Source: Escherichia phage vB_Eco_ZCEC15. Taken from it: DNA of 64,000 nt. The notes below the pieces were generated by a model. It did not search any database, was not told where the DNA came from, and saw only the letters and a list, made by a program, of their open reading frames with translations. The position numbers and the translations under genes are program-made. Below, piece by piece: positions 52,449 through 53,447 of the stretch (position 1 is its first letter; each line of letters opens with the position of its first letter). The DNA lies in sequence record PQ871103.1; one strand, written 5' to 3'.

Positions 52449-52492
52449 TTAGTACCTTATATAAATTATAATACATTTTATGAAGCTAATAA

Positions 52493-52852
52493 TCAATACG
52501 GTTTAGCATCAAATTTTCTTTCAATTTCAGGCGTGAAATATAATTCTTTACCACGTTTGGAAAAGCGACCAATAATATGATAATTATTCTCATCAAACGT
52601 GATATTACCAATATCCATAGCTTTCAACCAAATATCGATATTTCTATCCAGCTTTATGTCAAAATTCCAATACGGAGAACTATTACCGAAAATACTGCAA
52701 GCGGATTCAGTGAAACAACTGCTATAAATCTTGTCTTTAGGAACTACTAATTGATAAACACCTTTAATAAACTGAGGACCCTGCCACTTTGGCTGTTTCG
52801 CGTCTTCTTCTAATAGAATAGGATAATAATTAAAATTCATATTTTCCGCCAT
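52493..52852 (-). CDS. Hypothetical protein encoded by insertion at frd-td junction
   Basis: 119-aa ORF; AAGGTA-type RBS; overlaps frd 3' end by 23 nt. Confidence 0.55.
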
Positions 52853-53447
52853 GTGTTATTTCATTTTTATATACTGATTCCGTAAGGGTTGTTACTTCAT
52901 CTATTTTATACCAATGGGTTTCAACCATTTCACGTTTGCTTATATCATCAAGAAAACTTGCATCTAATTGAACCGTTGAATTAACACGATGCCTTTTAAC
53001 GATGCGAGAAACAACTACTTCATCTGCATAAGGTAATGCAGCATATAACAGAGCAGGACCGCCAATTACACTGATGCGATTTTCGCTGGAATCGATAAAC
53101 GTTTCAAAATTTGTGTTAGGACTGGATAATTGGATACGTCCACCGACTATTAAGGTAACATACTCATCCCAGGTAATATAAAAATGAGCCAAATCACCAT
53201 CTTTAGTTTCAGGATAGCCGCGTTTAATATCACATACCACCACATGACTACGACCTGGAAGTAATGTAGGCAATGACTGGAACGTTTTAGCGCCCATAAT
53301 CATAATTGTGCCTTCAGTACGAGCTTTAAAATTCTGAAGGTCCTTTTTAACTCGTCCCCATGGTAAACCATCACCTAAGCCGAATGCTAATTCATTAAAG
53401 CCTTCGACCGTTTTAGTTGGAGAATAAGCAAATACCAATTTAATCAT
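52830..53447 (-). CDS. frd: Dihydrofolate reductase (C-terminus extended into inserted sequence)
   Basis: 205 aa; DHFR-like; position upstream of td. Confidence 0.9.

Follow-up and report, generated by a model that had tools for sequence, protein, structure and literature searches.

A Conserved Gene Between frd and td of Tequatrovirus Genomes That Is Absent from Phage T4

Introduction

What lies between frd, the gene for dihydrofolate reductase, and td in those T4 relatives whose junction of these two genes is not the one known from T4, and by what route might the difference have come about? The question is raised here by a 64,000-nucleotide (nt) stretch of the genome of Escherichia phage vB_Eco_ZCEC15 (PQ871103.1), referred to below as the window, in which frd and td are separated by an additional open reading frame (ORF) that we call gene X, with all three on the minus strand. 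As explained below, X has been annotated before as a conserved hypothetical gene and is absent from T4, and we consider it quite probable that X is one of the resident genes of the frd-td operon, from a family restricted to the T4-like phages. The T4 form of this junction is not the reference state. The label "putative homing endonuclease", under which X appears in some database records, is unsupported.

The Extra Block and the Coding Status of Gene X

Alignment of the window junction with those of T4, T2, F2 and ACG-C40 places 484 nt between the 3' end of frd and the start of td in the window, as compared to 66 nt in T4, a difference of 418 nt. An earlier note on this DNA had proposed an extra block of ~400 base pairs (bp), carrying an ORF, exactly at this junction, and the boundaries that it gave, 52449..52865, proved right to within one base. 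It had also stated that the frd stop of T4 overlaps the td start, and this can indeed be seen in the T4 junction, GTATATAAATGAAACAATACC, in which the td ATG is overlapped by the frd TGA. In T2 the junction reads GTGTATAAATGAAATAACGCG..., i.e., frd stops as it does in T4 and the extra block follows, and in the window it reads GTATATAAAAATGAAATAACAC..., with two A's more than T4. The spacer between X and td is mostly missing from F2; in the window it contains an AAGGT, 7 bases upstream of the td ATG, that is absent from T4.

Read from its first ATG, the ORF extends over 52493..52852 and would specify the 119 residues that the earlier note assigned to it. It is a real and intact protein gene, but the start that is kept among relatives is the ATG at 52840, from which a protein of 115 residues is obtained. 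The upstream ATG at 52852 is replaced by GTG in T2 and by CTG in F2, and X is annotated in GenBank with a length of 348 nt. The homologue on the metagenomic contig L014, which is described below, begins with MNFNYY directly on an ATGA overlap with frd, and Moon, ACG-C40 and L014 use the equivalent ATGA to start the gene that follows frd.

The lack of matches to X in Pfam, NCBIfam and PDB sequences might be taken to mean that an open frame has arisen here by chance in a noncoding spacer, but the conservation data rule this reading out, and we assign it a practically negligible probability. A tblastn search with X matched 588 phage records, 362 of them at an identity of at least 90% and 226 of them distant (<60%), and X is intact in 585 of these. 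The ratio of nonsynonymous to synonymous substitution rates (dN/dS) is 0.013 between the window and T2 (dS 0.285), 0.045 between the window and F2 (dS 0.729) and 0.038 between T2 and F2 (dS 0.969). X is under strong purifying selection, and it belongs to a family of 31 aligned members that has invariant residues and a confident predicted fold.

Distribution of X Among the T4-Like Phages

A megablast search with 52350..52950 found the whole block in 354 of the 569 matching phage records, the carriers including T2, T6, RB32, RB7, AR1, PST and phiD1; the records of RB14 and RB51 use the name RB32ORF229c for X. The direct frd-td junction of T4 was detected with a junction-specific T4 probe in 35 records, many of which are strains of T4 itself and others of which are RB55, G2133, HY03 and ECO07P3. 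A third allele, in which a gene designated here as Z occupies the same spot, was found in 147 records; Z has 68 codons when read from an ATGA that overlaps frd as far as a TAATG that overlaps td, and is annotated as encoding 42 residues. The presence of X is the majority state in Tequatrovirus.

Beyond this genus, every distant record that was inspected had X after frd. Homologues follow frd directly in PM2 (Mosugukvirus), Mineola (Jiaodavirus), Moon (Moonvirus), ZX14 (Kanagawavirus), VAC36 (Marfavirus) and the Proteus phage ABTNLPp2 (Gelderlandvirus), the Logan contigs L014 and L015 likewise have X on the frd strand, after frd and before td, and homologous proteins were also obtained from phages CC31, Kc304 and PEi26. 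When the window is compared with the six genera just named, protein identity is 32-45% for X, 42-49% for frd and 77-84% for td. In five of these six genera X is separated from td by a second ORF of ~115 codons, Y. The two are paralogous (hhalign probability 99.2%, E=8e-20), and PHROG 1928 is matched by each of them; Y was found in 129 records, with no Tequatrovirus among the 40 matches listed, and no paralogue of X was found elsewhere in the window. The full array, frd-X-Y-Z-td, with ATGA-overlap joins, is present at 3405..5739 of L014 (Logan SRR23814683, metagenomic), which derives from an unclassified T4-like phage. Its X is the closest that was found outside Tequatrovirus, with 63% identity to X of the window, as compared to only 47% for frd.

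These observations bear on the origin of the block, which the earlier note had taken for foreign sequence. This view could not be upheld, because the G+C content and skew of the block are the same as those of its flanks, the block represents the majority state in Tequatrovirus, X is syntenic in at least six other genera and its divergence is similar to that of frd. The note had further reckoned that the same ORF with an assigned function in close relatives would speak against its reading; the ORF is present in T2, T6, RB32, RB14 and RB51, but without an assigned function there.

A Nuclease Gene at the Junction?

The presence or absence of X varies within Tequatrovirus at a junction of conserved genes, and this is also what one might expect of a mobile nuclease gene, such as one for a free-standing homing endonuclease, that has been inserted between frd and td. 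The earlier note had leaned towards such an insert and had seen in X a faint resemblance to the GIY-YIG domain in the string GVY-x9-IY, and a homologue from the BASEL phages, bas39_0071, is labeled "putative homing endonuclease" in GenBank. We regard a nuclease as highly improbable, and a GIY-YIG identity of X is rejected since the profile, hhalign, residue, size and fold tests all go against it. None of the 31 members of the X family matches the GIY-YIG family of Pfam (PF01541, E<=1) or any nuclease family, whereas I-TevI, encoded in the same window and used as a positive control, scores 2.1e-18 for GIY-YIG; the hhalign comparison of the X family with I-TevI has a probability of 0.5% over 7 columns. 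Within GVY...IYSS only G27 and Y29 are conserved, the IYSS half falling in a variable region, the catalytic Arg/Glu/Asn pattern is absent and there is no invariant acidic, His or Cys residue in the family. A protein of 115 residues that forms a single compact domain is too small to accommodate a DNA-binding domain as well (the usual size is at least 200 residues), the fold predicted for it is a beta-barrel whose listed fold matches include no nuclease, and X has a constant position in at least seven genera and a divergence like that of frd.

The GenBank labels of X clash with each other. In addition to the label used for the BASEL phages, X is entered as "putative glucose-1-phosphate adenylyltransferase" in BW-1 and pSe_SNUABM_01 and as "dihydrofolate reductase" in Kelasse and APTC-EC-2A. 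Profile searches support none of these conflicting assignments.

The X Protein

Searches with the X sequence in Pfam, NCBIfam, PADLOC (a library of defense proteins, not of anti-defense proteins) and PDB gave no match, in agreement with the earlier note, which had recognized no motif in the protein. X matches PHROG 1928 over its full length (E=9.3e-36; residues 8-115 against positions 2-125 of 126), and its Y paralogues match the same PHROG at up to E=2.5e-39. When 1.84 billion representative proteins were searched exhaustively with the family profile, 23 matches were returned, of which 21, with lengths of 95-116 residues, are genuine; the long matches P0021 and P0023 were discarded as repeat artefacts, and P0021 matches reverse transcriptase. 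Q16, W19, G27, G91, K95 and G97 are invariant in the alignment of the 31 family members, and L9, Y29, N79, F93 and F102 are nearly so. The motifs of the X/Y family, QxKW towards the N terminus and GRFxKxG....F towards the C terminus, are present in the window as Q16-P-K-W19 and G91-R-F-S-K95-R-G97...F102.

The AlphaFold model of X that was obtained from the 31 sequences has a predicted local distance difference test (pLDDT) score of 91.4 and a predicted template modeling score of 0.84, and supersedes a first, poor model from 4 sequences (pLDDT 57). Its elements are strands at residues 6-12, 27-34, 48-50/62-64, 86-96 and 99-104 and a helix at residues 68-76, i.e., X is predicted to be a small beta-barrel with a strand order like that of the oligonucleotide/oligosaccharide-binding (OB) fold. 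Comparison of the model with solved structures, OB domains included, gave no significant structural match. Because the invariant residues include no acidic residue, His, Cys or Ser, they point to binding or structure over catalysis, and X most likely binds protein or nucleic acid.

The Extended C Terminus of Frd

The earlier note had described an frd that reads on for ~11 codons into foreign sequence. The 11-residue tail was confirmed, but the insert is not its cause. The window frd leaves the frame of the TGA at the T4 position and stops instead at a TAA (52830..52832) that falls 8 nt inside gene X, which extends Frd by ~11-12 residues relative to the form with three A's (A3) at the junction; the end of the Frd core, TESVYK, is common to the window, T4, T2, RB69 and VR26. 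The tail results from the change of this run from A3 to five A's (A5) just before the old stop and not from the block itself. T2 has the extra block, yet its Frd stops at the T4 position. Judged from the aligned junctions, the tail is a side effect of the A3/A5 run-length polymorphism. A long frd of 618 nt is found in F2 and ZCEC14 as in the window, and the A5 form also in RB14 and RB10, while frd is short, with 582 nt, in T2, ACG-C40 and FriedrichMiescher. The long form accounts for about one fifth of the X carriers in two spread samples (11 of 51 rows and 7 of 37 rows), the second of which consists of matches in which X overlaps the annotated frd.

The frd gene of the window also contains a mosaic patch: nt 201-400 (53048..53247) are 94-96% F2-like and 60-74% T2-like. 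The remainder of the frd-X-td region is T2-like.

Gain or Loss of the Block

In the Tevenvirinae the place directly after frd is taken by X, often in an X-Y tandem, and sometimes Z then comes before td. The Tequatroviruses have subsets of this array. Most of them, including T2, T6 and the phage of the window, have X alone, others have Z alone, and T4 has none of these genes. The T4 junction might have come about through recombination between the 8-9 bp repeats that flank the block. Recombination between these repeats, (T)AAATGAAA, yields the exact T4 junction, and for this reason the T4 state is most simply interpreted as a loss. In addition, X has a wide and syntenic distribution, the empty allele is rare, and dS for X reaches 0.97 within Tequatrovirus, as compared to 0.15-0.18 for the flanks between T4 and T2. 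From these sequence comparisons, loss of X from the T4 lineage seems to us distinctly the more probable direction, with regain of X as the lesser possibility.

Several observations weigh against loss. Direct frd-td overlaps like that of T4 exist in the Mosigvirus RB69 and in the Gaprivervirus phages VR26 and CJ20, and a history of losses only would need several independent and precise events. The left edge of the block has the sequence ATGAAA, the same as the first two codons of td. Furthermore, the region is a recombination mosaic, as exemplified by nt 201-400 of frd, and arguments based on the flanks are weakened accordingly, since mosaic recombination confounds any direction of events that is read from flank divergence. 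An empty ATGA junction might be ancestral in Tequatrovirus, Mosigvirus and Gaprivervirus, with T4 keeping the older state and other Tequatroviruses having regained X. We consider this history possible but rather doubtful, and give similarly limited credence to the route that it might have followed, illegitimate recombination at the microhomology TAAATGAAA with a relative that carries the frd-X-Y-Z-td array as the donor. The 8-9 bp direct repeats around the block could be traces of such an event, and the higher identity of the L014 and window genomes in X than in frd would be compatible with it. Regain is more difficult to reconcile with the dS values of 0.73-0.97 for X within Tequatrovirus, given those of the T4-T2 flanks, and with the small number of T4-type records, many of them T4 strains. 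The repeat, too, may be convergent, because an ATGA start with an A-rich second codon is the usual type of junction at this locus (X of Moon, Z of ACG-C40, X and Z of L014), so that ATGA followed by AAA would be nothing out of the ordinary. Loss of X from T4 is the reading that we prefer.

Expression and Possible Functions of X

Because frd, X and td are on the same strand and no terminator-like site was found between them, X is probably cotranscribed with both of its neighbors, and the overlap between the frd stop and the X start fits translational coupling. A scan for promoter-like sites at the junction performed no better than with shuffled sequence, the same was true of RNA folds at the junctions of X, and Rfam gave no match at E<=1 within 50000..54500. 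A MotA-box-like AGCTTCA, located 10 nt before a TATAAT in the X-td spacer, is a weak similarity noticed by eye, and is absent from F2.

The fixed place of X beside frd suggests that X is a dispensable helper of the nucleotide-precursor module. Taken together with the predicted fold, this would make X a nonenzymatic, OB-like binding protein that is produced along with Frd and Td for this module, a proposal that we put forward as tentative. An even more speculative and rather unlikely extension is that X and Y could be an unrecognized accessory of the T-even deoxynucleotide-synthesis machinery, in which they might act as OB-like adaptors with Frd, Td, gp32 or nucleic acid as binding partners, or might safeguard the supply of thymidylate or deoxynucleoside triphosphates. 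If this were true, the accessory would have been neglected so far because the model phage, T4, happens to have lost the gene.

About equally likely as a role in the nucleotide module is a role in host interaction, the alternative to a nuclease that the earlier note had named for inserts of this kind, in which X would be a dispensable host-takeover or anti-defense protein, unrelated to folate or thymidylate metabolism. We treat this, too, as a possibility well short of being favored. T4, RB69 and VR26 live without X, the protein is small and phage-restricted, and the locus exchanges small cassettes (X, Y and Z), one of which, Z, is also found in unrelated Phapecoctavirus genomes. On the other hand, X keeps its position directly after frd, often with an overlap, from genus to genus, as counter-defense genes do not usually do, and X is subject to strong purifying selection; the search of PADLOC gave no match, though this library covers defense rather than anti-defense proteins.

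No description of X was found in the literature searched, including the 2010 review of T4 genomes. The modest lead that emerges is a strongly conserved protein family beside dihydrofolate reductase in many genera of T4-like phages, which is absent from Pfam and has no relative of solved structure.

Features of the Locus and Neighboring Observations

The features of the junction and of td are listed in Table 1; td exon 2 lies beyond the intron that bears I-TevI.

Table 1. Coordinates of frd, X, td and associated sequence elements in the window
Feature	Coordinates	Strand	Evidence or remarks
frd (dihydrofolate reductase), extended allele, 205 residues	52830..53447	minus	Pfam DHFR_1 E=2e-18; PHROG 316 E=7.5e-58
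Frd C-terminal tail and TAA stop	52830..52865	minus	Sequence reading; 11-nt overlap with start of gene X
A5 run (A3 in T4 and T2), shifting frd beyond the usual TGA	52864..52868	minus	Junction alignment
Mini-ORF ATGAAATAA, in frame with gene X	52856..52864	minus	Its ATG overlaps the frd TGA in A3-type phages
Gene X, conserved protein, 115 residues (RB32ORF229c family, PHROG 1928)	52493..52840	minus	PHROG 1928 E=9e-36; dN/dS; AlphaFold model
X-td spacer, 44 nt	52449..52492	minus	Shine-Dalgarno-like AAGGT for td at 52454..52458; weak promoter-like TTGATT-17-TATTAT
Direct repeat AAATGAAA, left copy (TAAATGAAA in A3-type phages)	52859..52866	minus	Junction alignment
Direct repeat AAATGAAA, right copy, across the td start codon	52443..52450	minus	Sequence; junction alignment
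td exon 1 (ORF to first in-intron stop)	51897..52448	minus	77-85% identity to td of other genera
I-TevI, GIY-YIG endonuclease encoded by the td intron	51031..51768	minus	Pfam GIY-YIG 2.1e-18; I-TevI_ZnF; I-TevI_DNA-bd

The td gene of the window, with its group I intron and I-TevI, occupies 50572..52448. Rfam did not find a group I intron in the td region at E<=1, presumably due to the ORF inside the intron. At the junction no database match is closer than ZCEC14 (99.8%), yet the td of this phage is uninterrupted, with a length of 861 nt; as judged from the window, ZCEC14 and their relatives, the presence of the td intron and the junction allele assort independently.

Two further observations concern gene 32 and frd.3. 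Gene 32 of the window (55116..55949) encodes a gp32 of only 277 residues. As compared to the closest relative, T4_ev151, ~199 nt are missing near gene 32 (about 55150..55161), and with them the last ~40 codons, which specify the acidic C-terminal domain, the terminator hairpin of gene 32 and the promoter-like GTTTAC...TACTAT before frd.3. Among the matches listed that span this stretch, which occur as two pieces, the length is ~570-700 bp versus 501 bp here, and none has the deletion, which may represent a real mutant or an assembly error. In frd.3 (about 54868..55095, minus strand) there is a 14-nt inversion, from ATTTTGAAGAAATT in T4_ev151 to AATTTCTTCAAAAT in the window, that sits in a quasi-palindrome, GAAT...ATTC, and creates a TAA at codon 13. 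From its sequence context, the inversion looks like a template-switch mutation.

Comparison with Known Genes and Systems

X of the window is identical as a gene to RB32ORF229c and to the hypothetical protein genes of T2, T6, RB14, RB51, AR1, PST and phiD1, with 96-100% protein identity and the same position and flanks. The window (A5) differs from T2 (A3) in having a longer Frd that overlaps X, as is also the case in F2, ZCEC14, RB14 and RB10. PHROG 1928 is broader than X, in that it merges the paralogous lineages X and Y, which occupy adjacent slots between frd and td; the Tequatroviruses have only X.

The Seg and Mob free-standing homing endonucleases found in T-even phages, which are GIY-YIG or HNH enzymes, share with X a location between conserved genes and a variable presence among close relatives, but X is without a nuclease domain or catalytic residues, has half their size and another predicted fold, and is fixed in position across genera. 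Another analogy is provided by the hyperplastic small-gene cassettes of T4-type genomes, in which conserved neighbors enclose small early genes that are exchanged or lost, and the junctions are stop/start overlaps. The X locus differs from these cassettes in that no flanking promoter-stem-loop repeats were found there, and in that the genes of its cassette are shared between genera and are not novel.
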